Source: Candidatus Saccharimonadales bacterium
GTDB lineage: Bacteria; Patescibacteriota; Saccharimonadia; Saccharimonadales; UBA10212
Assembly (NCBI GenBank): GCA_049521895.1
Contig: JBEKOJ010000001.1
Location: 226,717 to 290,716 of the forward strand
Direction: 5' to 3'
Length of the DNA stretch: 64,000 nucleotides
Shown here: piece by piece, positions 30,518 through 60,637 of the stretch
Layout of the letters: each line of letters begins with the position of its first letter
Numbering within the stretch: the first letter of the stretch is position 1
Made by a program: the position numbers and the translations under genes
Notes under the pieces: generated by a model
What the model was told of the DNA's origin: nothing
Database searches by the model: none
Seen by the model: the letters and a program-made list of their open reading frames with translations, nothing else

Positions 30518-31948
30518 TTATATGCCTAGCTGTTTTTTGATGATTTGCTGGGCCAGGCCCGGGTTGGCTTTGCCTTGGCTTTTGGCCATGACTTGGCCGA
30601 CCAAAAAGCCGATAGCTTTAGTTTGCCCGGCTTTAACGTCTGCTGCAACTTTAGAGTTTTCTTTGATGGCTTCTGCCACAATTTTTTCTATTTCGCTTTC
30701 GTCCGAAACTTGCAGCAGATTTTTAAATTCTCTTGGGTCTCGCGAATCTTTTATCGAGGACACTATAGCTATTGTAGCGTTGGTTGAACTAAGCAAATTA
30801 TCCGATAGCATTCCTGATACTGTAGTAAAGTAGCTTTTAGCTAAATCGCTCAAGGCTTGTTCGCGCGTTAAGACTCCGCTGACTGTGGCATTTTGGATCG
30901 GGCCAGTCCACCACTTTGCCGTGTCGCTGGCATCCTTTAGATTTCCTTCAGCTATTTTTTCTAGAATAAGCTTTGTGCCGTCGACGTCCTCAATCAAGCT
31001 CTCGAGCTGAGCTTTACCCATATCTAGTCTGGCAAGTTCTGAGCGAATTGCAGTCGGTAGTTTAGGTAAATCTTTTTTGAATTTGGCAATATCTGCATTC
31101 GTCAGTCCAATCGGCGGAATGTCCGGTTCGGGCATGTAGCGATAATCGTGAGCCTCTTCTTTTTCACGCTGGCCGGTGGTTTTTTGCTTGGCCTCGTCCC
31201 AGCCGCGTGTTTCTTGGACTACTGTCCCGCCTTTTTCCAGCAGCTCAATTTGCCGTTCAATCTCGTAAGCAACCGCGCCCTCGACACTGCGGAAGCTATT
31301 CAGGTTTTTTATCTCACTGCGTGTGCCTAGCTTGTTCGGATTCTGGCTGACGCTGATATTCACATCAAATCGGACATGCCCGTGGTACATATCGCCCTCG
31401 GTAACATCGGCGTATTTCATCAACAGCCACATTTCTCGGGCAAAGGCTTTAGCCTCAGTCGCGTTGTGGATCTCAGGTTTGCTAACAATTTCCAGAAGCG
31501 GCGTACCAGCCCGGTTGAGGTCTACCAACGAATAATCCGCACCAGCTGGGTGGATATTCTTACCGGCATCTTCTTCCAAGTTAACGCGCTCAATACCGAC
31601 ACGTATCTGCCGACTGTTTACCGGCACATCAACGTAACCGCCGATGATGATCGGCTGTTCGTACTGGGTAATTTGGTAGCCTTTGGGCAAATCAGGATAG
31701 AAGTAGTGTTTGCGGTCAAATTTGCTGAAAGTTTGCGGTTTGGTATTCAGGGCAAAGGCCGCGCGCGCGGCCAGCTCCAGGGCTTTTTTATTCAAAAACG
31801 GTAATGCTCCTGGCAGGCCAACGCAAATGTGGCTGATTAAGGTATTCGGCGGGGCTTCACGGGCATCGTTGTTAACAGCTGCGAATAGCTTGGTTCTGGT
31901 TTTTAGCTGCACATGACATTCGATACCGATAGTCGGAATGTATTTCAT
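30518..31948 (-). CDS. gatB: Asp/Glu-tRNA(Asn/Gln) amidotransferase subunit B
   Basis: 476 aa starting with IGIECHVQL, with a YqeY-like C-terminus. GGAGGG lies upstream. Confidence 0.95.
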   Translation of the reverse strand: MKYIPTIGIECHVQLKTRTKLFAAVNNDAREAPPNTLISHICVGLPGALPFLNKKALELAARAAFALNTKPQTFSKFDRKHYFYPDLPKGYQITQYEQPIIIGGYVDVPVNSRQIRVGIERVNLEEDAGKNIHPAGADYSLVDLNRAGTPLLEIVSKPEIHNATEAKAFAREMWLLMKYADVTEGDMYHGHVRFDVNISVSQNPNKLGTRSEIKNLNSFRSVEGAVAYEIERQIELLEKGGTVVQETRGWDEAKQKTTGQREKEEAHDYRYMPEPDIPPIGLTNADIAKFKKDLPKLPTAIRSELARLDMGKAQLESLIEDVDGTKLILEKIAEGNLKDASDTAKWWTGPIQNATVSGVLTREQALSDLAKSYFTTVSGMLSDNLLSSTNATIAIVSSIKDSRDPREFKNLLQVSDESEIEKIVAEAIKENSKVAADVKAGQTKAIGFLVGQVMAKSQGKANPGLAQQIIKKQLGI

Positions 31949-40456: not shown

Positions 40457-40482
40457 AATCCTAACGGCTATTTTAGCATAAG

Positions 40483-40564
40483 CCCAGTAGTGAGCTTTCG
40501 AGATTATCCGTAAAGCGGATATTTAGCCCGCAAAAGCGGGCTGACTTGAAAGTCTACTACTGGG
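40483..40564 (+). mobile_element. ORF-less CCCAGTAG-terminus element (82 nt, three-way junction form)
   Basis: Sequence: CCCAGTAGTGAGCTTTCGAG...CTTGAAAGTCTACTACTGGG. The internal hairpins are ATCCG-TAAAG-CGGAT and AGCCCGC-AAAA-GCGGGCT. TAAG flanks both sides. Confidence 0.7.
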
Positions 40565-40574
40565 TAAGCCCATC

Positions 40575-43616: not shown

Positions 43617-43772
43617 CCCAGCAGTGAGCTTGCGAGATTATTCGATTCCCTTGGAGCCGTCAGCTCGTCAGCATCTCTTACGAAGACTGTAAGTCGGGAA
43701 CAGTTATGTTAGCGAGGCCTCGAATAATTAGCTCATGCGAGCGATGAGCTGACTCGAAAGTCTACTGCTGGG
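43617..43772 (+). mobile_element. ORF-less CCCAGCAG-terminus element (156 nt, expanded hairpin)
   Basis: Sequence: CCCAGCAGTGAGCTTGCGAG...CTCGAAAGTCTACTGCTGGG. The termini co-vary (T-A changed to C-G). The hairpins are ATTATTCGA-[69 nt]-TCGAATAAT and AGCTCAT-GCGAGCG-ATGAGCT. TTT flanks both sides, and the right terminus overlaps the rpe stop codon. Confidence 0.7.
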
Positions 43773-44406
43773 TTTCGTCGGCGATGCGTTGCAGAGCCGC
43801 GAAAGCCCGCGCCGGGTCTTCAGCTCTTTGGATATAACCGCCAACGTTTAGTACGTCCACGCCACCATTTATTAGCTCAGCAACATTTTGGTCATTAATA
43901 CCACCGTCCCAGCCCACTTCCAAATCAGGTTTATACTGTTTCAAAATACTTAACTTGTTAAGTAATTTAAGGTCGGCGTGGCTGCCGGTTTGGTAACCTA
44001 AATTACCGGAGAATATCAACACGTGGTCAATACTACTTAGCGCCGGCAGGATTGTTTCAGCCGGTGTCCGTTGCAACAGTGCCACACCAACCCCTACTTC
44101 ATGACGGTGGCAAAAGTTGGCAATATCCTCAAAACCGCCTTCGGCTTCGGCGTGAACTATTATCAGATTTGGCCGGTGCTCCATGATAGTTTGAACAGCT
44201 GGCATTGGATGGCGGTACATGAGATGAAAATCGGCTTTAACCCCCACCGGCCACCAAGCTTGCTCGGGCCTAACGGTACGGCTGGGTGCAAACTGCCCGT
44301 CTGTTAAATCAATCTGGATACGCTGGGCAAAATGGGCTATCTTGGCTATTTGTTGTCTGTATTCTTCTTCGCTGCCAGCTAAAATTGCCGGGCAAATAGT
44401 CGGCAT
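43762..44406 (-). CDS. rpe: ribulose-phosphate 3-epimerase
   Basis: 214 aa with a TIM-barrel pattern (ICPAILA, DLTDG, HLM, VHAE, GWDGG). The last codons, ACC CAG CAG TAG, are contributed by the inserted element terminus. Confidence 0.85.
   Translation of the reverse strand: MPTICPAILAGSEEEYRQQIAKIAHFAQRIQIDLTDGQFAPSRTVRPEQAWWPVGVKADFHLMYRHPMPAVQTIMEHRPNLIIVHAEAEGGFEDIANFCHRHEVGVGVALLQRTPAETILPALSSIDHVLIFSGNLGYQTGSHADLKLLNKLSILKQYKPDLEVGWDGGINDQNVAELINGGVDVLNVGGYIQRAEDPARAFAALQRIADETQQ
43947..43964. repeat. iterated palindrome copy (TACTTAAC-TT-GTTAAGTA)
   Basis: Perfect 8-bp arms inside rpe, reading CTT AAC AAG TTA AGT = LNKLS. Confidence 0.7.
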
Positions 44407-53646: not shown

Positions 53647-54969
53647 ATGGCTATAGACGAGTCAAAACTGCTGGATGAGGCCAAGAAAGTTCTGGCGCAC
53701 AATGACCGCAAAAAATGGACAGTCCCGGCAGGTGATTTATATCCGCATCAGTGGCTATGGGACAGTTGTCTTATTTCCATCGGTTTGCGGCATCTTGATA
53801 TCGACCGGGCGCAAATCGAATTGACCAGTCTGCTACAAGGCCAATGGAGCAACGGTATGCTACCGAATATAATTTTCTCAAGCGATGATAAGTACCACCG
53901 CGACCGCGAACTTTGGCGTAGTTATGTCAGTCCTTACTCGCCCGACAAGGTAGCCACCAGCGGTGTCACCCAGCCGCCGCTGTTGGCGGAGGCCGTAGTG
54001 CGCATTGGCCAAAAATTAAAGCAGCCAGAACGTCGCACTTGGTACAGGCAAATGTACCAGCCGCTAATCGAATATCACCAGTGGCTATACCGCGAGCGCA
54101 ATCCACACAATGAGGGCCTGATCGTTCTCCTGCATCCTTATGAAGGCGGTCTAGATAACGCTCCGCCTTGGATCAGCGAGCTCAGAAAACATAACATGCC
54201 TTTTTGGCTCACCCTAGTTGAAAAAGCCCACCTTGGTGGCATAATCGGCTTAGCCAGACGAGATACGCAGCATACAACCTTGGCCCAACGTATGGACAAC
54301 ATCGAAGCTGCGGCTTATTGGGCATCTATGCACCGTCTGCGGCGCAAAGCTTATAATAGCGAGGCTCTCTTTTCCCGTTCGCTTTTCACTGTGGAGGATC
54401 TGGCTTTCAACTGTATCTTGATCCAAGCCAATACCCGTCTGGCTGAGATAGCTAAGACCATCGGGCAAAAATTGCCAGACAATTTGGTACAATCGATACA
54501 CAAAACTGAATCCGCTCTGGAGCAACTATGGGATGAATCTACAGGCCAGTATTACTACCGTAGTTTTATTAGCCATAAACTGATAGAAGAATCGACTATT
54601 GCTACACTGCTGCCACTTTATGCTGGCTCAATCAGCAAAGACCGGGCCAAACAGCTGGTGGAATTACTCAATAGGCCCAAGCAGTTTGCGACTAAGTGGC
54701 CGGTGCCTAGTGTCCCCGCTAGTTCGCCATATTTTAATCCGTTTCGATACTGGCAAGGGCCAACCTGGATAAACACTAATTGGCTAATCATCGAGGGTCT
54801 TGGACTATATGGTTTTAGTAAAGAGGCAGCGTCGCTGCGCCAAAAAACTCTGGATTTAGTAGCCAAAAGCGGCTTTTACGAGTACTACAATCCTCTAACT
54901 GGCGAACCGGCCGGAGCCGCCAATTTTAGCTGGACCGCCGCCTTAATCATTGATTTATTGAAAGACTAG
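53647..54969 (+). CDS. (alpha/alpha)6-barrel glycoside hydrolase, GH63 / mannosylglycerate hydrolase / debranching-enzyme-like
   Basis: 440 aa with LWDSCLISIGL, HPYEGGLDNAPPW, YWQGPTWINTNW and EYYNPLTGEP.GAANFSWTAA. Confidence 0.7.
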   Translation: MAIDESKLLDEAKKVLAHNDRKKWTVPAGDLYPHQWLWDSCLISIGLRHLDIDRAQIELTSLLQGQWSNGMLPNIIFSSDDKYHRDRELWRSYVSPYSPDKVATSGVTQPPLLAEAVVRIGQKLKQPERRTWYRQMYQPLIEYHQWLYRERNPHNEGLIVLLHPYEGGLDNAPPWISELRKHNMPFWLTLVEKAHLGGIIGLARRDTQHTTLAQRMDNIEAAAYWASMHRLRRKAYNSEALFSRSLFTVEDLAFNCILIQANTRLAEIAKTIGQKLPDNLVQSIHKTESALEQLWDESTGQYYYRSFISHKLIEESTIATLLPLYAGSISKDRAKQLVELLNRPKQFATKWPVPSVPASSPYFNPFRYWQGPTWINTNWLIIEGLGLYGFSKEAASLRQKTLDLVAKSGFYEYYNPLTGEPAGAANFSWTAALIIDLLKD

Positions 54970-56030
54970 TCTTCTTCAAGATTGGGTTTATCTAGCAGCA
55001 TCGGCTCCACGGACGGTTCCACTTCAGCAATTTTAACAATGTCTTTATCGATTTTGCCCAATTCCTTATAGGTAGTATTGAAGTGTCCGACGGTTGTGTT
55101 GAGACTACCGCCTAGCTTTTGCATATAGCCGTAATGTGATACTAAATGTTTCTGTAACTGCTCGATATTTTTACGGATTCTTTCAGTGTCCTGATTAATC
55201 TGTATAGACCTCATACCTTGAATGATAATCTGTAAGTTTGCTGCGAGCGTGCTGGGGCCAACGATCGTGACCTTTTTTTCAGCAGCCGCATATTGGATGA
55301 GGTTTCTGCTGTTCACGCCCCCAGCACCAACTTTGTTAGCTAGTAAGTCATAGTAAATGCCCTCGCTAGGGATATACATAAAAGCTTGGTTAAGGGTGCC
55401 CCTGTTGGGTTTTATATACTTGGCTGTCTCGTCGATACGCTTTTTAAGGTCTTCTTTAAAGACACGCTCCAATGCTGGCTTTTCTTCGGGTTTGGCTTCA
55501 ACTAGCCGATTATAGTTTTCCAAGCTGAATTTACTGTCAACTGGAATCAGTTTATCGCCAAATTTTATAACTGCATCGACAATGAGACCTTCACCTAATT
55601 TATACTGGAGCTCATAAGTACCCGGAGGCAACATGTTTTTTAACGCTTGTTCCAGATAGAACTCGCCCAGAACACCTCGCTGCTTAGGGTTCTGTAGGAC
55701 ATTTTGTAGAGTTTTTAAGCCGTCTGCTACGTCTCCCACGCTCTTGTTGGTTCGTTCAATCTCCGTTAGCTGACGTGTTACTTCTTGAAGAGTTTTTATA
55801 TTCTGACCATGTTGCACGCCCATTTGTTTGTTGCTACTACTAAGTTGTTCGCTCAGTTGTTTTTGCAGACTGTCTTTAAGCTGGGCCATGCCTTTGGTGA
55901 GCTCCGTCATATCGGCCTTTAGCAGCATCGTGGCGTCAGAGCCGGTCTTTCTTGGCCGGGCGAAGTTCCAAAAAACAAACCCAGCCAGGGCTACGCACAA
56001 AACCGCCAAAATAATCACCGCCACAATCAT
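54966..56030 (-). CDS. rmuC: DNA recombination protein RmuC
   Basis: 354 aa with an N-terminal TM segment, a coiled coil, and a C-terminal nuclease-like region (DSKFSLENY, FMYIPSEG). Confidence 0.9.
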   Translation of the reverse strand: MIVAVIILAVLCVALAGFVFWNFARPRKTGSDATMLLKADMTELTKGMAQLKDSLQKQLSEQLSSSNKQMGVQHGQNIKTLQEVTRQLTEIERTNKSVGDVADGLKTLQNVLQNPKQRGVLGEFYLEQALKNMLPPGTYELQYKLGEGLIVDAVIKFGDKLIPVDSKFSLENYNRLVEAKPEEKPALERVFKEDLKKRIDETAKYIKPNRGTLNQAFMYIPSEGIYYDLLANKVGAGGVNSRNLIQYAAAEKKVTIVGPSTLAANLQIIIQGMRSIQINQDTERIRKNIEQLQKHLVSHYGYMQKLGGSLNTTVGHFNTTYKELGKIDKDIVKIAEVEPSVEPMLLDKPNLEED

Positions 56031-56031
56031 A

Positions 56032-56155
56032 CCCAGTAGTAGACTTTCTGTTGGCTATTCGCCAAAACTTACTTACTTCTATATTTTACCTGCCAAGTAT
56101 AGCTTTGTTATATACACTGTTCACTGCGAAACAGCACAGAAAGCTCACTACTGGG
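56032..56155 (-). mobile_element. ORF-less element, apparent internal-deletion derivative of the GIY-YIG copy
   Basis: The minus strand reads CCCAGTAGTGAGCTTTCTGTGCTG...AGCCAACAGAAAGTCTACTACTGGG. The subterminal sequence matches 58349-58661. It is flanked by CATG on one side and TATG on the other, and the TATG holds the rmuC start codon. Confidence 0.7.
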
Positions 56156-56164
56156 CATGCCTAT

Positions 56165-56170
56165 ATTGTA
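56165..56170 (-). promoter_or_regulatory. putative -10 box TACAAT (original rmuC promoter, leaderless type)
   Basis: On the minus strand, TACAAT-ATAGGC-ATG now leads into the inserted element. Confidence 0.4.
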
Positions 56171-56215
56171 GCTTAAGTTGGTAGTGCAACACGAGGCTGA
56201 TGCTAAACTAAAACC

Positions 56216-56851
56216 ATGAAAAACGACACAACTTGTCCTTCTTGCGGCAGTGTCCTAAGTAAGCCACCAAAACGAGACACGAAGTGCCCGGAGTGTGGCA
56301 AGATAATTTACGTTCGTGGGAAGCAACCTTTTTTTGATAAAACTTTGTTAACCGAAAAAGAGAAAATTGTATCTGATATATTCGAACAGCTTAGCAACAC
56401 TGCAGGTTACGGAGTCACTAAAGAAACATATCAAGAAACTCGCGACAGACTAACCAAAAAATGGGGAATGCAAGCAAGCTGGACAGATGTTACCCGAGCA
56501 GTACATGTTCAGTTGAGCCTCCGTTTCGCCAAAGAGGGCAATTTTCAACATTTAGCTTGGCTCGAATCCAGCATGGCTAATTTTTTATGGCAGAACCATG
56601 CAGATTTTCGGAACTCACAACTACAAAGCGCAAGATACAATTTGATGCTATTTAAAAAGGCGGGGGCTAAGTCAGCTTGGGTGGATGTCTCGACATCCGG
56701 TTGTACTGCGTGCAAAAGCTTGGATGGTAAGACTTTTGATATAACAGATGCTTTGCGCAATATACCTATCCCGCCGAAAGACTGTACTTGCAAGCCGGAC
56801 GAGAATCTTGCAAGAGGTTACTGTACCTGTTTGCTATACGCAAATTTCTAA
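56216..56851 (+). CDS. zinc-ribbon hypothetical protein
   Basis: 211 aa with an N-terminal CPSCG...CPECG and a C-terminal Cys cluster (CTACKSLDG...CTCKP...CTC). Confidence 0.5.
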   Translation: MKNDTTCPSCGSVLSKPPKRDTKCPECGKIIYVRGKQPFFDKTLLTEKEKIVSDIFEQLSNTAGYGVTKETYQETRDRLTKKWGMQASWTDVTRAVHVQLSLRFAKEGNFQHLAWLESSMANFLWQNHADFRNSQLQSARYNLMLFKKAGAKSAWVDVSTSGCTACKSLDGKTFDITDALRNIPIPPKDCTCKPDENLARGYCTCLLYANF

Positions 56852-57444
56852 CTCTGTATGGTAACGGTCGTGCCAACCGGTGCCCAGCCATAGAGCCATT
56901 TTGCGGCGGCCAGTGGCATTTCCACGCAGCCATGCGAAGCATTGGAAGAATTGGGGTCAATATTGCCAAAGTCACTAGCCGCCCGCCAAGTGGCATCGTG
57001 AAAACCATAAACACCGTAGTTATTAGATAGAAACGGCATCCAATAACTTACCGGGTCGTTCCAACAGCCAGTGGTATCGCAACCTTTAAGAACAGTGTCC
57101 GTTTGCTTAGCGTAAATTTTATAGGTGCCGGCTGGCGTTAGGTCTTCGGGCAGGTTTTCCATGCCGGTTATGACCGGGTTGTCGTAGACAGTTTTGCTGC
57201 TTTCGCAGACCCACATATGTCGCTTACTGATGCTGACAATTACCGCTTGGGCTGCCGTGTTGCCGGCGCAGTGGCTGGCCAGTTCTTCTGCCGCGGCTTT
57301 AGCGGCATCAGCTTTGGCGGTAGCGATTTTAGCCGTAGCGGCTGCTTTTTGCGACACTTGTTTAACCGTGTTTTGACGGTGGTAAACAAAAAAACCGGCA
57401 GCGGCTACAACTAAAATAACGGCGACAAGTTTTATTTTTAGCAT
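56848..57444 (-). CDS. L,D-transpeptidase (YkuD domain)
   Basis: 198 aa with an N-terminal TM segment, GFHDATW and the catalytic SHGCVEMP. Confidence 0.85.
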   Translation of the reverse strand: MLKIKLVAVILVVAAAGFFVYHRQNTVKQVSQKAAATAKIATAKADAAKAAAEELASHCAGNTAAQAVIVSISKRHMWVCESSKTVYDNPVITGMENLPEDLTPAGTYKIYAKQTDTVLKGCDTTGCWNDPVSYWMPFLSNNYGVYGFHDATWRAASDFGNIDPNSSNASHGCVEMPLAAAKWLYGWAPVGTTVTIQS

Positions 57445-57460
57445 CGTGTTCTTAATTATA

Positions 57461-57547
57461 CCCAGTAGTAGACTTTTGAGCGAGCCCGCATGTCTGCGGG
57501 CTCATATATCCACCGGGGATGGATAATCTCAAAAGCTCACTACTGGG
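57461..57547 (-). mobile_element. ORF-less CCCAGTAG-terminus element (87 nt, three-way junction form)
   Basis: The minus strand reads CCCAGTAGTGAGCTTTTGAG...CTCAAAAGTCTACTACTGGG. The hairpins are ATCCATC-CCC-GGTGGAT and GAGCCCGC-AGACAT-GCGGGCTC. TATAA (TTATA on the plus strand) flanks both sides. Confidence 0.7.
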
Positions 57548-57554
57548 TTATACC

Positions 57555-58280
57555 TTAGACGAAACGGGTAACGACAAACATGAAAACCGTACCAAGAACC
57601 GTCAGGCCGATAGTTGTACGTGAGGAATTCTTGCTGTGAGCCTGCGGCAAAATATCACTGGCTCCGATATAGAGCAAGAAACCAGCAAAAAAACCAAGAT
57701 AAAGTACCAGCCACCTATCAGGGACGCTGAATAGCAAGGTGGAAGCCGCTCCCAAAACCGGCGCGATGGCATCTAGGAATAGTAGCTTTTTAGCTCGGCT
57801 GGCTTCATTTTTATTATGCAGCATTAAAATCACGGTGTTCATTCCATCGGTAAAGTCATGGGCGATGACGGCTATAGCTACAGTGATGCCAACGGCATTA
57901 CCGGCCTGAAAGCCAAGACCGATGCCAACACCATCCAAAAAGCTGTGTCCGGACAGCGCTAGCGCGCTGGCGATGCCGACCTTTGGGTGAACATGTTTGC
58001 CGTATTCTTTTTCTTGCGCGTAGTGCAACAAGATCGTTTTTTCTAAGATGTGAAATAGCAAAAACGCTAAAACAAGTGCCACCATCGGCCGCACAAAAGC
58101 GGTATGGGTAGAATTCACCTCATTGGCGATTTCCGGCAGCAGGTCAAAGGCCACCACGCCCAGCAGCACGCCAGCAGTGTAGCCCATAATACGATGTAAG
58201 ATTTTTTGGTTTCTTAGCGCCGTGATTCCACCTGTGAGCGTAGAAAAGAAGGTGGCGCCGGAAAGTAATATTGGAAGCAT
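57555..58280 (-). CDS. zupT: ZIP family metal (zinc) transporter
   Basis: 241 aa with about 8 TM segments. The motifs HSFLDGVGIG and HDFTDG are typical of ZIP/ZupT. Confidence 0.85.
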   Translation of the reverse strand: MLPILLSGATFFSTLTGGITALRNQKILHRIMGYTAGVLLGVVAFDLLPEIANEVNSTHTAFVRPMVALVLAFLLFHILEKTILLHYAQEKEYGKHVHPKVGIASALALSGHSFLDGVGIGLGFQAGNAVGITVAIAVIAHDFTDGMNTVILMLHNKNEASRAKKLLFLDAIAPVLGAASTLLFSVPDRWLVLYLGFFAGFLLYIGASDILPQAHSKNSSRTTIGLTVLGTVFMFVVTRFV

Positions 58281-58333
58281 GGGCTAAAGCATAAACAAAG
58301 TGCTAATATATTTGCAAATTTGTCGCAAAAATA

Positions 58334-58339
58334 TACAAT
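58334..58339 (+). promoter_or_regulatory. putative -10 box TACAAT (original fur-family promoter, leaderless type)
   Basis: TACAAT-ATTGAT-ATG. This ATG (58346) is now fused in frame to the GIY-YIG ORF. Confidence 0.4.
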
Positions 58340-58345
58340 ATTGAT

Positions 58346-58660
58346 ATGCCTAGTAGTGAGCTTTCTATAGTGTTCTGCTATGTCTACGTTTTATACTCTA
58401 ATGTCAGCAAGAGCTTCTATGTAGGTTTTACGCATGATCTTAAGAAGAGGATTGCAGAACACAATAAGGGCTTAATTTTTTCTACAAAAGGCTATAAGCC
58501 CTGGGAGTTAATTTATTACGAGGCGCATGCTAAAGAGGCAGACGGCAGACGCCGTGAAAAATATCTAAAGACCACGGCAGGGGATAGAGCTTTACATAGA
58601 ATGCTTAGAGGGAAGCTGACTGAGGTGAAAAATTTAAGCCGACAGAAAGTCTACTACTAG
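58346..58660 (+). CDS. GIY-YIG nuclease family protein (small COG2827/UPF0213-like)
   Basis: YVYVLYS-x6-FYVGFT-DLKKRIAEHNKG...ELIYYE...REKYLKT matches the GIY-YIG pattern. The tracked ATG (58346) is the duplicated host start codon, and an internal GTG at 58370 is an alternative start. The stop TAG lies inside the right terminus. Confidence 0.85.
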   Translation: MPSSELSIVFCYVYVLYSNVSKSFYVGFTHDLKKRIAEHNKGLIFSTKGYKPWELIYYEAHAKEADGRRREKYLKTTAGDRALHRMLRGKLTEVKNLSRQKVYY

Positions 58661-58661
58661 G
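58349..58661 (+). mobile_element. ORF-bearing CCTAGTAG-terminus element (GIY-YIG nuclease cargo)
   Basis: CCTAGTAGTGAGCTTTC...GAAAGTCTACTACTAGG encloses a single ORF. A TATG direct duplication flanks it (58345-58348 and 58662-58665). Confidence 0.75.
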
Positions 58662-58662
58662 T

Positions 58663-59079
58663 ATGCAACACAACACTCTTAAAGCGCTTTTAAAGAAAGA
58701 CGGCGCCAGTCTGACTAAGCCACGCAAAATCGTATTTGACCTGTTACTCAACCAGGAGCCACAGAGTATGAAAGTTTTGACCCAGAGGGCTGCCGGCAAA
58801 GTTGACCGGGCGACCGTTTATCGCACCGTGGAGCTATTTGAGCGTTTAGGTATTGTCCACCGCTTAAATATCGGCTGGAAATATAAAATGGAGCTAAGTG
58901 ACGTATTTCATGCCCACCACCACCATTTTTATTGCACCAATTGCAATAAAACATACCCCTTGCCCGCCAACCCTATGCTAGAGACCATGATAGATAGCAC
59001 GGTGGCCAAGGACGGTTTCTCGCCACGCGGCCATCAACTAGAAGTTTACGGCCTATGCGCCCAGTGTTCTCGCGGCTAA
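58663..59079 (+). CDS. Fur family transcriptional regulator (Zur-like by context)
   Basis: 138 aa with a winged helix, then HHHHFYCTNC and CAQC metal sites. It is divergent from zupT. Confidence 0.85.
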   Translation: MQHNTLKALLKKDGASLTKPRKIVFDLLLNQEPQSMKVLTQRAAGKVDRATVYRTVELFERLGIVHRLNIGWKYKMELSDVFHAHHHHFYCTNCNKTYPLPANPMLETMIDSTVAKDGFSPRGHQLEVYGLCAQCSRG

Positions 59080-59140
59080 GTTCTCCTCGCCGTTCTTAGC
59101 TAAATCTCAGCTAATTCTGTTGTTATGATTTAGACAAATT

Positions 59141-60637
59141 ATGAATTTTGCGGCGAAACTTTATCAGCGACCACTAGATCTTGTCGATAGCCTGCTTGAT
59201 GGCATAACTTCTTACCGTTTATTACTCTATTTCCTCTTGACGGTTCTAGGCTGGGCTACGCTGGCCAGTTTCAGGGGGAATGTTCCCTTTAGCTGGCACG
59301 CCATCGTTTTTTCTGCACTGGCACTGGTGATAGTCTGCCGGCTAAGCGGGGAGTTTTTCGCCCGCGTTTTAAACATCGCCCGTAATTTTGAATCTGATTA
59401 CATAACGGCGTTGATTTTGGCCCTAATTATGAGTCCAGCGACCACCTTGAAGGGTTTCGCGATTCTGGTAGGAGCGGGTTTTGCTGCCATTGCTTCTAAG
59501 TATTTATTGACCATCGGCCGGCGTCATATCCTTAATCCGGCCGCAGCTGGCGCCGTTGTCGCCGGAGTATTTTTTGGGCAGTATGCCAGCTGGTGGGTCG
59601 GCACGGCAGTACTGGCACCGCTAGTACTGGTTGGCGGCTTATTAATAATGCGTAAAATGAAACGGTTCTACATGGTCGCAGGTTTTGCGTTAGTTTACGG
59701 CGTGTTTCTGCATCACCAATTTGATGGCGCTCCGGCCCTGCATACCATATGGCTGGCGGCGTCCGGTACTGCCGTGATGTTTTTTGCTTTCATCATGCTG
59801 ACCGAGCCTTTAACGTTGCCGGACTTGGCTATGCGCTATATGCCGTACGCCGTTTTGGTAGCCGTCCTATATAGCGTTAACCGTTTGCGGCTGGCCCCAG
59901 AAGAAGCTCTGCTGATCGGCAACGTTTTTGCCTACGCACTGGAACGCGGCAAGCGACTGGAGTTGAGCTTAAATAGCGTGCGCAAAGAGGCCGAGGGGAT
60001 ATATAGTTTCGTCTTTACTTACCACGGCGCTTTTAATTTCAAGCCCGGGCAGTACATGGAATGGACGCTGCCGCTTCGCCATAGTGACAGCCGCGGTAAC
60101 CGGCGTTATTTAACCCTTTCCTCAGCACCGACCGAAAACCAGCTAATGTTTACGGTTCGTTTGCCGCGCCGGGCAAGCCATTTCAAAAAAGCTTTAGCGG
60201 CTTCTAAGCCGGGCGGCAAGATATTAGCCTCGCACCTCGCCGGCTCGTTCGTTCTGCCCGGCGACGATAGCAAAAAACTGGCATTTATCGCCGGCGGCAT
60301 TGGTGTTACACCTTTCCGTTCGATGATTAAATATGTGGTAGACAGCCGCCAGCAGCGGCCAATTAGCCTACTGTATGCCGCTAACCACGCCAACGAATTC
60401 GCCTTCACCCAGTTGCTTAAGCAAGCCGAGCCTTTTGGTATTACTACCAATTATCTTGACACTTCCAAGCGCAGCCTCGACCAACAGGCTATCGTCGAAA
60501 ATTTGCCGGACTGGCGAGAGCGGCATTTTTATTTGTCTGGACCTTACGGATTTGTAAAATCAGTGCGGGAATCACTTTTGGATATGGGTGTGAGCCTGAG
60601 AAATATTAAGTCCGATTATTTTCCCGGCTACGGCTAA
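59141..60637 (+). CDS. polytopic membrane domain fused to an FNR-like FAD/NAD(P)-binding oxidoreductase
   Basis: 498 aa with about 7 TM segments in the N-terminal half. The C-terminal half has RRYLTLSS (RxYS FAD motif) and GGIGVTPFRSM (NAD motif). Confidence 0.75.
   Translation: MNFAAKLYQRPLDLVDSLLDGITSYRLLLYFLLTVLGWATLASFRGNVPFSWHAIVFSALALVIVCRLSGEFFARVLNIARNFESDYITALILALIMSPATTLKGFAILVGAGFAAIASKYLLTIGRRHILNPAAAGAVVAGVFFGQYASWWVGTAVLAPLVLVGGLLIMRKMKRFYMVAGFALVYGVFLHHQFDGAPALHTIWLAASGTAVMFFAFIMLTEPLTLPDLAMRYMPYAVLVAVLYSVNRLRLAPEEALLIGNVFAYALERGKRLELSLNSVRKEAEGIYSFVFTYHGAFNFKPGQYMEWTLPLRHSDSRGNRRYLTLSSAPTENQLMFTVRLPRRASHFKKALAASKPGGKILASHLAGSFVLPGDDSKKLAFIAGGIGVTPFRSMIKYVVDSRQQRPISLLYAANHANEFAFTQLLKQAEPFGITTNYLDTSKRSLDQQAIVENLPDWRERHFYLSGPYGFVKSVRESLLDMGVSLRNIKSDYFPGYG

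Follow-up and report, generated by a model that had tools for sequence, protein, structure and literature searches.

The element at the fur-family gene

The window analyzed here, a stretch of 64,000 nucleotides from Candidatus Saccharimonadales bacterium (GenBank assembly GCA_049521895.1, contig JBEKOJ010000001.1, positions 226,717 to 290,716), contains a 313-bp element with inverted ends (58349–58661, plus strand) that is located on the start codon of a fur-family gene and whose sole open reading frame (ORF) codes for a GIY-YIG nuclease. The promoter of the host gene (58312–58339, plus strand) lies upstream of the element and consists of a -35 hexamer, TTGCAA (58312–58317), a 16-nt spacer and a -10 box, TACAAT (58334–58339). 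The -10 box is separated by 6 nt (ATTGAT, 58340–58345) from ATG 58346–58348, which is the original fur start codon and is contained in the left copy (58345–58348) of a target site duplication (TSD) of sequence TATG. The 17-nt left terminal inverted repeat, CCTAGTAGTGAGCTTTC (58349–58365), follows directly and codes for PSSELS in the frame of the flanking ATG, the other two frames being shut by stops (CC TAG TAG TGA and ..CTA TAG). An ORF of 104 amino acids (58346–58660) opens at the duplicated host ATG, crosses the left end and continues into the nuclease; codon 9 of this ORF, GTG 58370–58372, is the element's own start and yields a protein of 96 amino acids (MFCYVYVL...). The nuclease stop codon, TAG 58658–58660, is inside the 17-nt right terminal inverted repeat, GAAAGTCTACTACTAGG (58645–58661), and is followed after 2 nt by ATG 58663, the working start of the fur-family gene, which is supplied by the right copy of TATG (58662–58665). 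All of these features are on the plus strand, as is the host gene (58663–59079), which codes for a Fur-family regulator of 138 amino acids (PF01475, E 4e-17). An inverted-repeat search returned arms at 58346–58366 and 58644–58664 with 81% complementarity, and the single Pfam domain found in the 104-residue ORF was GIY-YIG (residues 11–78, E 2.4e-16). The initial annotation of this DNA, in which the sequence had been read as TACAAT-ATTGAT-ATG with the left end directly after the ATG, was correct at every coordinate, and its placement of the nuclease ORF in frame with the duplicated ATG, with TAG in the right end 2 nt before the fur ATG, was likewise confirmed.

Within 58150–59150, TTGCAA (58312)-16 nt-TACAAT was the only sigma-70-like match, and no promoter-like site was found inside the element; similarly, a scan of the 1 kb around the element found no terminator. 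An outward promoter for fur in the right end was considered and rejected, as the best hexamer (TCTACT) was without the key A2 and the scan was negative. Candidate Shine-Dalgarno sequences for the internal GTG (a weak GTGAG 9 nt upstream) and for the host ATG (AGG 1 nt upstream) were unconvincing on inspection, and an Rfam scan of 55900–59200 and of one related locus (L084) for known RNA families in the ends or in miniature copies (see below) gave nothing relevant.

The insertion was evident from comparison with related loci. Within the same species, 23 contigs share an identical Fur protein, and the element was present in all of them (23/23). The divergent ZIP-family metal transporter gene upstream of fur (57555–58280, minus strand) set the syntenic frame for finding empty sites; thus, Fur orthologs (75–85% identity) with the same YkuD-ZIP-Fur synteny, a 66-nt ZIP-fur spacer and no element were found at loci L083, L085–87 and L088. 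The empty sites read TAAGAT-TGATAC-ATGCAACATCAA (L083), TATAAT-TTTGCAT-ATG (L085–87) and TAAAAT-TCGCTT-ATGCATTAC (L088), while the window minus the element and one TATG reads TACAAT-ATTGAT-ATGCAACACAAC. In each empty site, a single ATG was present exactly at the insertion point with a -10 box 6–7 nt upstream, and this geometry was conserved. The comparison with relatives that lack the insertion, as suggested in the initial annotation, thus revealed ATG at the junction of orthologous empty sites and shows that the element was inserted into the TATG containing the fur start codon, with duplication of the 4-mer.

Two other accounts of the locus were rejected. The idea that the ATG belongs to the element itself, and not to the duplicated target, does not hold because the empty sites contain a single ATG and because other 4-mers (TAAG, TTGA, TATA, TAGG and TACG) flank the same ends in miniature and distant copies. 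An ordinary conserved upstream gene of an operon was ruled out by the syntenic orthologs without the nuclease gene.

Some further observations were made at the fur locus and its orthologs. Given the divergent ZIP transporter, the host regulator is probably Zur-like. A motif, TTTGCAAATnTGTCGCAA (58309–58327), which overlaps the -35 hexamer, was conserved between the divergent ZIP and fur genes and was kept, together with the -10 box, in the orthologous empty sites; this operator-like sequence is a candidate Zur/Fur operator. In L085–L087 (1201–1215), the Fur orthologs are 141 amino acids long and 9 extra nt, CCTAGCCCA, are present straight after the ATG and before CAG. These extra nucleotides open with CCTAG (i.e., the first five bases of the element) and may be an excision footprint; the N-terminal length of Fur varies among orthologs generally and no claim is made here. 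In L084 (about 1060–1200), another insert of approximately 140 nt, with no Rfam match, was noted between the conserved TATAAT and the fur ATG.

Residence on start codons and expression of nuclease and host gene

Homologs of the nuclease numbered 614 at E≤1e-5, and nearly all of the best 106 of these start with MPSSELS (i.e., ATG plus left end) and finish with QKVYY* (i.e., right end). From genome and metagenome collections, 160 loci were retrieved, in which pattern-based searches located both ends of 47 full elements; the retrieval was protein-based and finds only intact, presumably expressed copies. The ends of the element show a 3-nt asymmetry, and for a few copies a one-base ambiguity is left in the TSD boundaries. 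Of the 47 full copies, which come from Saccharibacteria and further Patescibacteria, 44 have an ATG directly against the left end, as opposed to 1/64 by chance. The right flank of 44/47 copies consists of ATG, preceded by T, C, G or nothing, and then a host ORF of 71 to >480 codons. Host genes included those for trigger factor, a ComM-like ATPase, an FtsA/PilM-like protein, HIT, XerC/D, ArgRS, PGI, RarA, a histidine kinase, a class II aminoacyl-tRNA synthetase and TrpRS/TyrRS as well as several unknowns. The number of distinct host genes in the close subfamily is about 16, many sites being orthologous between genomes, and even at this number residence on ATG is far beyond the chance expectation of 1/64. 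The retrieved genomes usually hold one full copy, and the same host genes (xerC/D, tig and the MQPG gene) were occupied in several genomes. For trigger factor, ArgRS and TrpRS/TyrRS, the Pfam alignments begin at residues 1–4 of the host ORFs, which indicates that the regenerated ATG is the true host start. These findings support two proposals of the initial annotation, i.e., that an intact start is regenerated for the host gene and that the layout minimizes harm to the host, several of the hosts being essential genes.

TSDs of 4 bp included TATG, CATG, GATG, TAAG, TTGA, TATA, TAGG, TACG, TAAA, TGGA and TGAA. In a second subfamily (Parcubacteria-type relatives), the ends are shifted (TCCCGTAGTAGA..TTCACTACAGGA, also given as TCCCGTAG..CTACAGGA), the TSD is TGGA, TGAA or TGTT and the host ATG is restored by the junction of the element's final A with the duplicated TG, as noted for the copies at L016, 17, 22, 24, 44, 52, 56, 60, 75 and 77. 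Since the host ATG is still rebuilt with the insertion point shifted by 3 nt, these copies suggest that the start-codon layout is selected and is not a side effect of a single DNA specificity or 4-mer preference.

A leaderless-type context was found at most of the occupied sites, with TAnnnT at spacer 5–8 in 26/38 flanks. Among 38 distinct left flanks that end in ATG, TAnnnT was present at spacer 6 in 19, at spacer 7 in 6 and at spacer 8 in 2, while a Shine-Dalgarno-like GGGGGA/GGGAGAGG with no adjacent -10 box was seen in 3–4. In the window, for which the background is a crude gene call, TAnnnT at spacer 6–8 was found for 18/57 genes and a Shine-Dalgarno-led appearance for 14/57; the former number indicates that leaderless-type starts are common in this genome. 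Against the same background, spacer 6 was enriched on elements (19/38 flanks versus 6/57 window genes, Fisher p 3e-5). The host fur gene itself has the features of a leaderless gene (i.e., a -10 box ending 6–7 nt before the start and no Shine-Dalgarno sequence), and its mRNA probably starts at the A of ATG 58346 or at a neighbouring nucleotide.

The element begins only 21 nt before its own start codon, and with no promoter-like site inside it the promoter of the nuclease must be external. Thus, that part of the initial annotation in which the element borrows the host promoter was supported, whereas the borrowed start codon turned out to be one on which the nuclease does not depend, codon 9 being a conserved start. 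Among 35 distinct close copies, codon 9 was GTG in 25, ATG in 9 and another codon in 1, and it was never GTA, GTC or GTT, whereas neighbouring Val codons use all four. In the family profile, residue 10 is matched to residue 2 of a 94-residue Rhizobium GIY-YIG protein that starts with MAGYVYIV (98% probability). Taken with the numbering of the catalytic Tyr/Tyr/Glu residues (see below), conservation of codon 9 and its alignment with Met1 indicate that it is the ancestral start and is still constrained. The borrowed ATG would add an optional extension of eight residues, so that borrowing of the start codon is plausible but not obligatory. In no copy of the close subfamily was the left end interrupted by a stop in the frame of the flank ATG, and the copies at L067 and L113, which have no internal start, must use the flank ATG. 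An out-of-frame flank ATG in distant subfamilies opens an upstream ORF (uORF) of 7–21 codons with its stop 5–7 nt before the nuclease ATG; in the second subfamily, the flank ATG opens the 7-codon uORF MNPVVDF*, which ends 7 nt before the nuclease ATG. Our reading is that the site of ribosome entry is borrowed, with an N-terminally extended nuclease as the probable result in the close subfamily and with the element's GTG still usable. Borrowing of the promoter and regeneration of the host start are well supported by these comparisons.

The stop/restart arrangement first described at fur proved to be general. Thus, the host ATG follows the nuclease TAG after 2 nt in 26 copies and after 1 nt in 4, and in 5 copies with the end CTGGG instead of CTAGG the nuclease ORF ends only within the host ORF, with an overlap of 8 nt. 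In the right end, neither a Shine-Dalgarno sequence nor a convincing -10 box was found. Some efficient initiation must occur at the regenerated ATG, since essential genes stand behind the element, and the simplest route to it would be termination followed by re-initiation.

The explanation that we propose, and which we consider probable, is that of a nuclease element carried on start codons and expressed by the host, with restart of the host gene behind it. Since a promoter would not fit inside the element, transcription would proceed from the host TTGCAA-16-TACAAT promoter, and the mRNA would be leaderless as outlined above. Ribosomes would load at ATG 58346 and read in frame through the left end to give the 104-residue form with a disordered tail of eight residues, while the element's GTG 58370 could also start the native 96-residue form. 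The product would be a single-domain GIY-YIG nuclease of about 96 amino acids, from an Ssn/UPF0213-like clade (see below), with the 17-nt ends of the element built into its first and last codons. Translation would end at TAG in the right end and the ribosome would restart 2 nt further on at the fur ATG, so that the host gene stays expressed.

Several points weigh against this explanation. Many of the 44 sites are orthologous, so that the counts overstate the number of independent events, and approximately eight distant ORF-bearing copies are located at 4-mers (or similar) other than ATG (TAGG, TACG, TAAA, AAAA, TTCG and TATAA). The few Shine-Dalgarno-led flanks do not conform to a leaderless start, and with a conserved internal start at codon 9 the nuclease can do without the borrowed ATG. 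Only 8/18 copies in distant type-A subfamilies had their flank ATG in frame. In a miniature copy at rmuC (see below), no stop lies closer than about 75 nt upstream of the host ATG, which suggests that tight coupling is not the sole way to initiate these genes. Furthermore, the transcription start, the use of ATG 58346 as opposed to GTG 58370 and re-initiation at 58663 are inferred from sequence, and the link between the GIY-YIG protein and mobility, taken up in the last section, rests on analogy.

The alternative that these points bring forward is an incidental fusion, with the nuclease made only from GTG 58370, Fur initiated independently at 58663 and read-through from the flank ATG without a role. 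The alignment of codon 9 with Met1 of Ssn homologs and its conservation as a start would be expected in that case, as would the out-of-frame flank ATGs of distant subfamilies and the position of the rmuC host ATG far from an upstream stop. The out-of-frame copies are, however, those in which uORFs ending 5–7 nt before the nuclease ATG look like coupling, and in the close subfamily the left-end frame is always open while the other two frames contain stops. A 5'-terminal AUG is the preferred site of ribosome entry on leaderless mRNA, and L067 and L113 offer no internal start. An incidental fusion is considered unlikely, and host-driven expression with restart is preferred.

Miniature copies and choice of target

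The cognate repeat of the element was also dispersed in the window, as four miniature inverted-repeat transposable elements (MITEs) and two hairpins of about 32 nt that consist of ends only; more were found in related loci. A 124-bp MITE (56032–56155, minus strand) is on the start codon of rmuC (54966–56030, minus strand) in the arrangement TACAAT (56170–56165)-N6-ATG (56158–56156)-MITE-T-ATG (56030–56028). This MITE keeps the first ten nuclease codons (MPSSELSVLF), followed by a stop, which identifies it as a deletion derivative. Empty rmuC orthologs were found at L169 (TATAAT-N6-ATGATTGTGGCGG) and L171, the arrangement across both being TATAAT-N6/8-ATG. An 87-bp MITE (57461–57547, minus strand) is located in the -10 box of a YkuD-family gene, where duplication of TATA(A) rebuilds TATAAT (57460–57455) at 10 nt before the ATG (57444). 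The corresponding ykuD promoter was empty in L083 and L085 while L084 (184–264) contained an orthologous MITE with altered terminal bases (CCCCGCAG/CTGCAGGG). An 82-bp MITE (40483–40564, plus strand) with the TSD TAAG (40479–40482 and 40565–40568) lies just upstream of the -10 sequence TGnTAAAAT of a pfkB-family gene on the minus strand. The fourth, a 156-bp MITE (43617–43772, plus strand), is flanked by TTT and overlaps the last codons of rpe, its right end (43756–43772) supplying the last codons and stop of the ribulose-phosphate 3-epimerase ORF (43762–44406, minus strand); the ends of this MITE carry compensating changes (CAGCAG/CTGCTG). In the two end-only hairpins (11768–11800 and 12447–12478), both element ends are joined head to head (CCGTGTAGTGAAC-TCT-GTTCTACTAC..), each hairpin following the same ATCTGCTT. 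The hairpins are in direct orientation and bracket an ORF of 185 amino acids (11817–12374, minus strand) without a Pfam match. They could be minimal repeat units like the NTS/SRM hairpins of about 30 nt that accompany Ssn nucleases.

In the 462 kb made up of the window and the related loci, the TSDs of MITEs were TATG (three), TTGA (two, inside -35 hexamers), TATA(A), TAAA, TAAG, TTT and GGA. A striking bias of MITEs towards promoters was noted, with a TSD that rebuilds the -35, the -10 or the ATG of the gene beside them. In contrast with the ORF-bearing copies, 44/47 of which were bound to ATG, only 3/10 MITEs were so located (p 5e-5). The difference fits retention of full copies only where the nuclease stays expressed (i.e., on start codons), and it also reflects the search for intact proteins. 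We suggest that a position on a start codon, being harmless in a gene-dense genome and a guarantee of nuclease expression, is the likely reason that full copies persist there, while MITEs, which have no ORF and need no expression, would spread over other promoter-proximal 4-mers. A preference for T-rich 4-mers such as TATG, possibly in melted promoter DNA, would help elements to reach start codons.

The promoter bias of MITEs could equally be due to survivorship in a dense genome or to real targeting of promoter DNA. In an explanation by active targeting, an Ssn-type nuclease specific for single-stranded DNA (ssDNA) would act where RNA polymerase has melted the DNA (about -11 to +3), and survivorship would not be involved. 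At a leaderless gene, both the -10 box and the ATG fall within the melted stretch, and this is where insertions cluster; TATG occupies -1 to +3 after a spacer-6 -10 box in the 19/38 flanks for which enrichment over the window was noted above, although that background is from a crude gene call. MITEs inside TATAAT (57461–57547, L084 and L065) are also in keeping with such targeting, whereas the two in -35 TTGA(CA/CT) are in DNA that is not melted and the 3–4 Shine-Dalgarno-led sites have no adjacent -10 box. The activity of SsnA on ssDNA only (PMC11893778) is a further point in its favor. On this evidence, active targeting as the cause of start-codon residence seems improbable, and retention of expressed copies is the preferred reading.

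Other observations that concern target sites were as follows. At L015 (1430–1499), L033, L057 and L117, elements or MITEs were arranged in tandem with one common 4-mer (TATG, TACG or TTGA) between them, and new copies seem from these sequences to insert preferentially beside an existing end. At L148, L152/L154 and L159, distant small GIY-YIG genes (43–48% identity) were found directly after tRNA 3' ends (..GGTTCGAATCC..), so that other branches of the nuclease family may use tRNA genes as targets. Elsewhere in the window, tandem heptamers (four copies of ACTACAA, and the variants ACTATAA/ACTGTAA) were noted directly upstream of the genes at 30518–31948 and 187–717, both on the minus strand.

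Probable relationship to Ssn nucleases, and mobility

The nearest solved structures by sequence were UPF0213 proteins BH0048 and EF2693, followed by Slx1 (E 0.005–0.04). In an AlphaFold2 model of the 104-residue protein (pLDDT 81), the core (residues 11–97) was modeled confidently (about 90) while residues 1–4 and 98–104 were below 50, and the tails encoded by the ends of the element (the first eight and last seven residues) are predicted to be disordered. Foldseek matched this model to BH0048 and Slx1 (PDB 1zg2, 6seh and 7cq2) with a probability of 1.0, above UvrC and I-TevI. The group I intron endonuclease model of NCBIfam scored 24.8 bits as against a cutoff of 56. Y14, Y25 and E71 were invariant in the nuclease alignment and, when counted from codon 9, correspond to Y6, Y17 and E63.

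The catalytic residues of SsnA are Y6, Y17 and E64 (PMC11893778). Members of the Ssn family (cd10448) are single-domain GIY-YIG enzymes of 94 amino acids that bind a hairpin repeat, NTS/SRM, as ssDNA only and cut a few nucleotides upstream of it; Ssn genes are flanked on both sides by the repeat, which also occurs elsewhere in as many as hundreds of dispersed copies (PMC11893778). Chenal et al. (2025) noted the insertion sequence-like appearance of NTS-ssnA-NTS and its analogy with REP/RAYT, and proposed domestication (PMC11893778). Comparison by hhalign of the nuclease with the SRM-flanked 94-residue Rhizobium protein gave 98% probability (E 2e-13). This Rhizobium plasmid homolog (39% identity) has Y6/Y17/E64 and canonical SRMs, inverted, at 20 and 31 nt outside the ORF. 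The plasmid collection gave weak protein matches only. The element resembles an Ssn system in the size of its protein (94–96 amino acids), in the single GIY-YIG domain, in the matching Tyr/Tyr/Glu positions (E63 here versus E64) and in that the gene is bracketed by inverted repeats that are also dispersed as short copies folding as ssDNA hairpins. The predicted ssDNA folds were Y-shaped for MITEs (z-scores -8.9 and -9.3) and a panhandle for the full element, with the ends paired.

Differences from Ssn systems were also noted. The element lacks an SRM, its two ends are the arms of one long stem instead of self-contained hairpins and they overlap coding sequence; in addition, the 4-bp TSD, empty sites, deleted MITEs and start-codon residence found here are not mentioned in PMC11893778, nor are Patescibacteria. 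The published SRM motif (HGTCWY..RNCYNB, searched as a regular expression) occurred 0 times in the 64-kb window and twice in 416 kb of related loci, neither time at an element. Separately, a canonical pair of NTS/SRM-type hairpins (TGTCATTCCCGTGAAGACGGGAATCCAG and an inverted partner) was noted on a Patescibacteria contig (L030, 732–805) about 700 nt from an element and not at its ends. From sequence and by analogy, the nuclease of the element is probably a relative of Ssn and probably works like an Ssn nuclease; as with SsnA, it would recognize the ssDNA stem of the paired ends and cut the adjacent flank.

Evidence that the element moves as a unit was obtained at several levels. Three features of a transposable element were found, namely inverted ends, a 4-bp TSD of variable sequence and empty sites at fur, rmuC and the ykuD promoter. 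In one metagenome, elements at two different host genes (L095/L097) were 94% identical, while elements at unrelated genes are typically 75–80% identical. The 17-nt ends were conserved across approximately 80 elements with covarying terminal bases, and several copies showed covariation of the ends (e.g., TCTAG../..CTAGA in L006 and L106). In distant copies the end motif is kept but falls in another reading frame, and conservation of the ends acts at the DNA level. The nuclease is under strong purifying selection; among 28 copies, median dN/dS was 0.12 and synonymous sites were saturated (pS about 0.8) with the ends still conserved. No transposase of the DDE, HUH, Ser, Tyr or Cas1 class was found in the element, the only ORF of which is that of the GIY-YIG nuclease, and no transposase gene was seen adjoining any of about 80 elements. 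By analogy, the GIY-YIG protein may be the mobility enzyme of its own element.

A different view is that of a domesticated host system, as was proposed for Neisseria SsnA/NTS, which might for example restrict incoming ssDNA in transformation and whose position would be a frozen accident. Low dN/dS (0.12) with saturated synonymous divergence, the usual single full copy per retrieved genome, the Ssn precedent and the occupation of xerC/D, tig and the MQPG gene in several genomes would all be compatible with domestication. The occupation of at least 16 different host genes in close relatives, the syntenic empty sites, the 94% identical copies at two loci and the convergence of two subfamilies on rebuilding ATG are not, and residence on the start codon of another gene would be left unexplained; domestication appears quite unlikely. 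Least probable is that the GIY-YIG gene is a passenger in non-autonomous, MITE-family ends moved by an unrelated transposase encoded elsewhere, for which it can be said that GIY-YIG enzymes are known as hydrolytic nucleases and not as strand-transferases and that a 4-bp TSD is typical of DDE transposition. This is opposed by an end motif, CCnnGTAGTGA..TCTACTACnnGG, that accompanies GIY-YIG genes of about 50% identity in Saccharibacteria, Parcubacteria and other Patescibacteria, by the lack of a transposase gene beside the approximately 80 elements inspected and by the finding that Ssn genes of other phyla, too, lie between cognate repeats of their own (PMC11893778).

A broader proposal is put forward tentatively, as a possibility that we do not think the likelier outcome. 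Ssn-type nucleases might be the mobility enzymes of an unrecognized class of prokaryotic transposable elements, the smallest autonomous ones (about 310 bp), with ends inside coding sequence; Patescibacterial lineages of this class would settle on start codons by way of ssDNA in the promoter open complex, use the promoter and ribosome entry of the host and return the ribosome to it.

Partial likeness to other known systems was evident. IS200/IS605 elements and REP/RAYT are also small, with an enzyme that recognizes hairpin end DNA, many short palindromic derivatives and a short target beside the end, but they use HUH/Y1 transposases and subterminal hairpins and have no TSD, and residence on start codons is not known for them. 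Homing genes such as I-TevI and T4 Seg are likewise selfish GIY-YIG genes that often lean on transcription of the host or a neighbour and overlap neighbours. Homing endonucleases have a separate DNA-binding domain and one long conserved site, with no inverted ends, TSD or MITEs, whereas the element described here codes for a single-domain protein and occupies at least 16 unrelated host genes. Integron cassettes are promoterless single-ORF units that depend on an external promoter and have imperfect inverted repeats read as folded ssDNA, but they have no enzyme of their own, are moved into one attI by a tyrosine recombinase and are not on host start codons. The Correia MITEs of Neisseria are short inverted-repeat elements in promoter regions with a short TSD and are co-transcribed with neighbours, but no cognate enzyme encoded for them is known, their target is TA and no start codon is restored by their insertion. 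Finally, UPF0213 (YhbQ/BH0048) and the Slx1 domain are the best structural matches (Foldseek probability 1.0, as given above) in spite of weak sequence matches; Slx1 has a RING domain and the partner Slx4, and neither protein is known within an inverted-end element.

In full-text searches of an incomplete library, no account was found of inverted-end or MITE-forming GIY-YIG elements in Patescibacteria, of a prokaryotic GIY-YIG transposase or of an element that targets and regenerates start codons. The repeat-flanked Ssn gene was already known, while the TSD, the empty sites, the deletion-derived MITEs and the ends inside the ORF are new in the literature covered, as is, above all, the regular occupation of host start codons, with the nuclease ORF fused to the host start and the host gene probably restarted behind it. 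One practical consequence is a pitfall for gene calling, in that host genes seem to have an extra upstream 'gene' with zero intergenic space. The comparisons provide evidence that a small, repeat-flanked gene of Ssn type moves as a unit, which was only a hypothesis in the Ssn paper. In a tiny, gene-dense genome the element is selfish DNA made harmless in an unusual manner, being tolerated by genes for aminoacyl-tRNA synthetases, trigger factor and FtsA-like proteins. As a naturally occurring case, it lends itself to the study of leaderless initiation and of termination-reinitiation in the Candidate Phyla Radiation.

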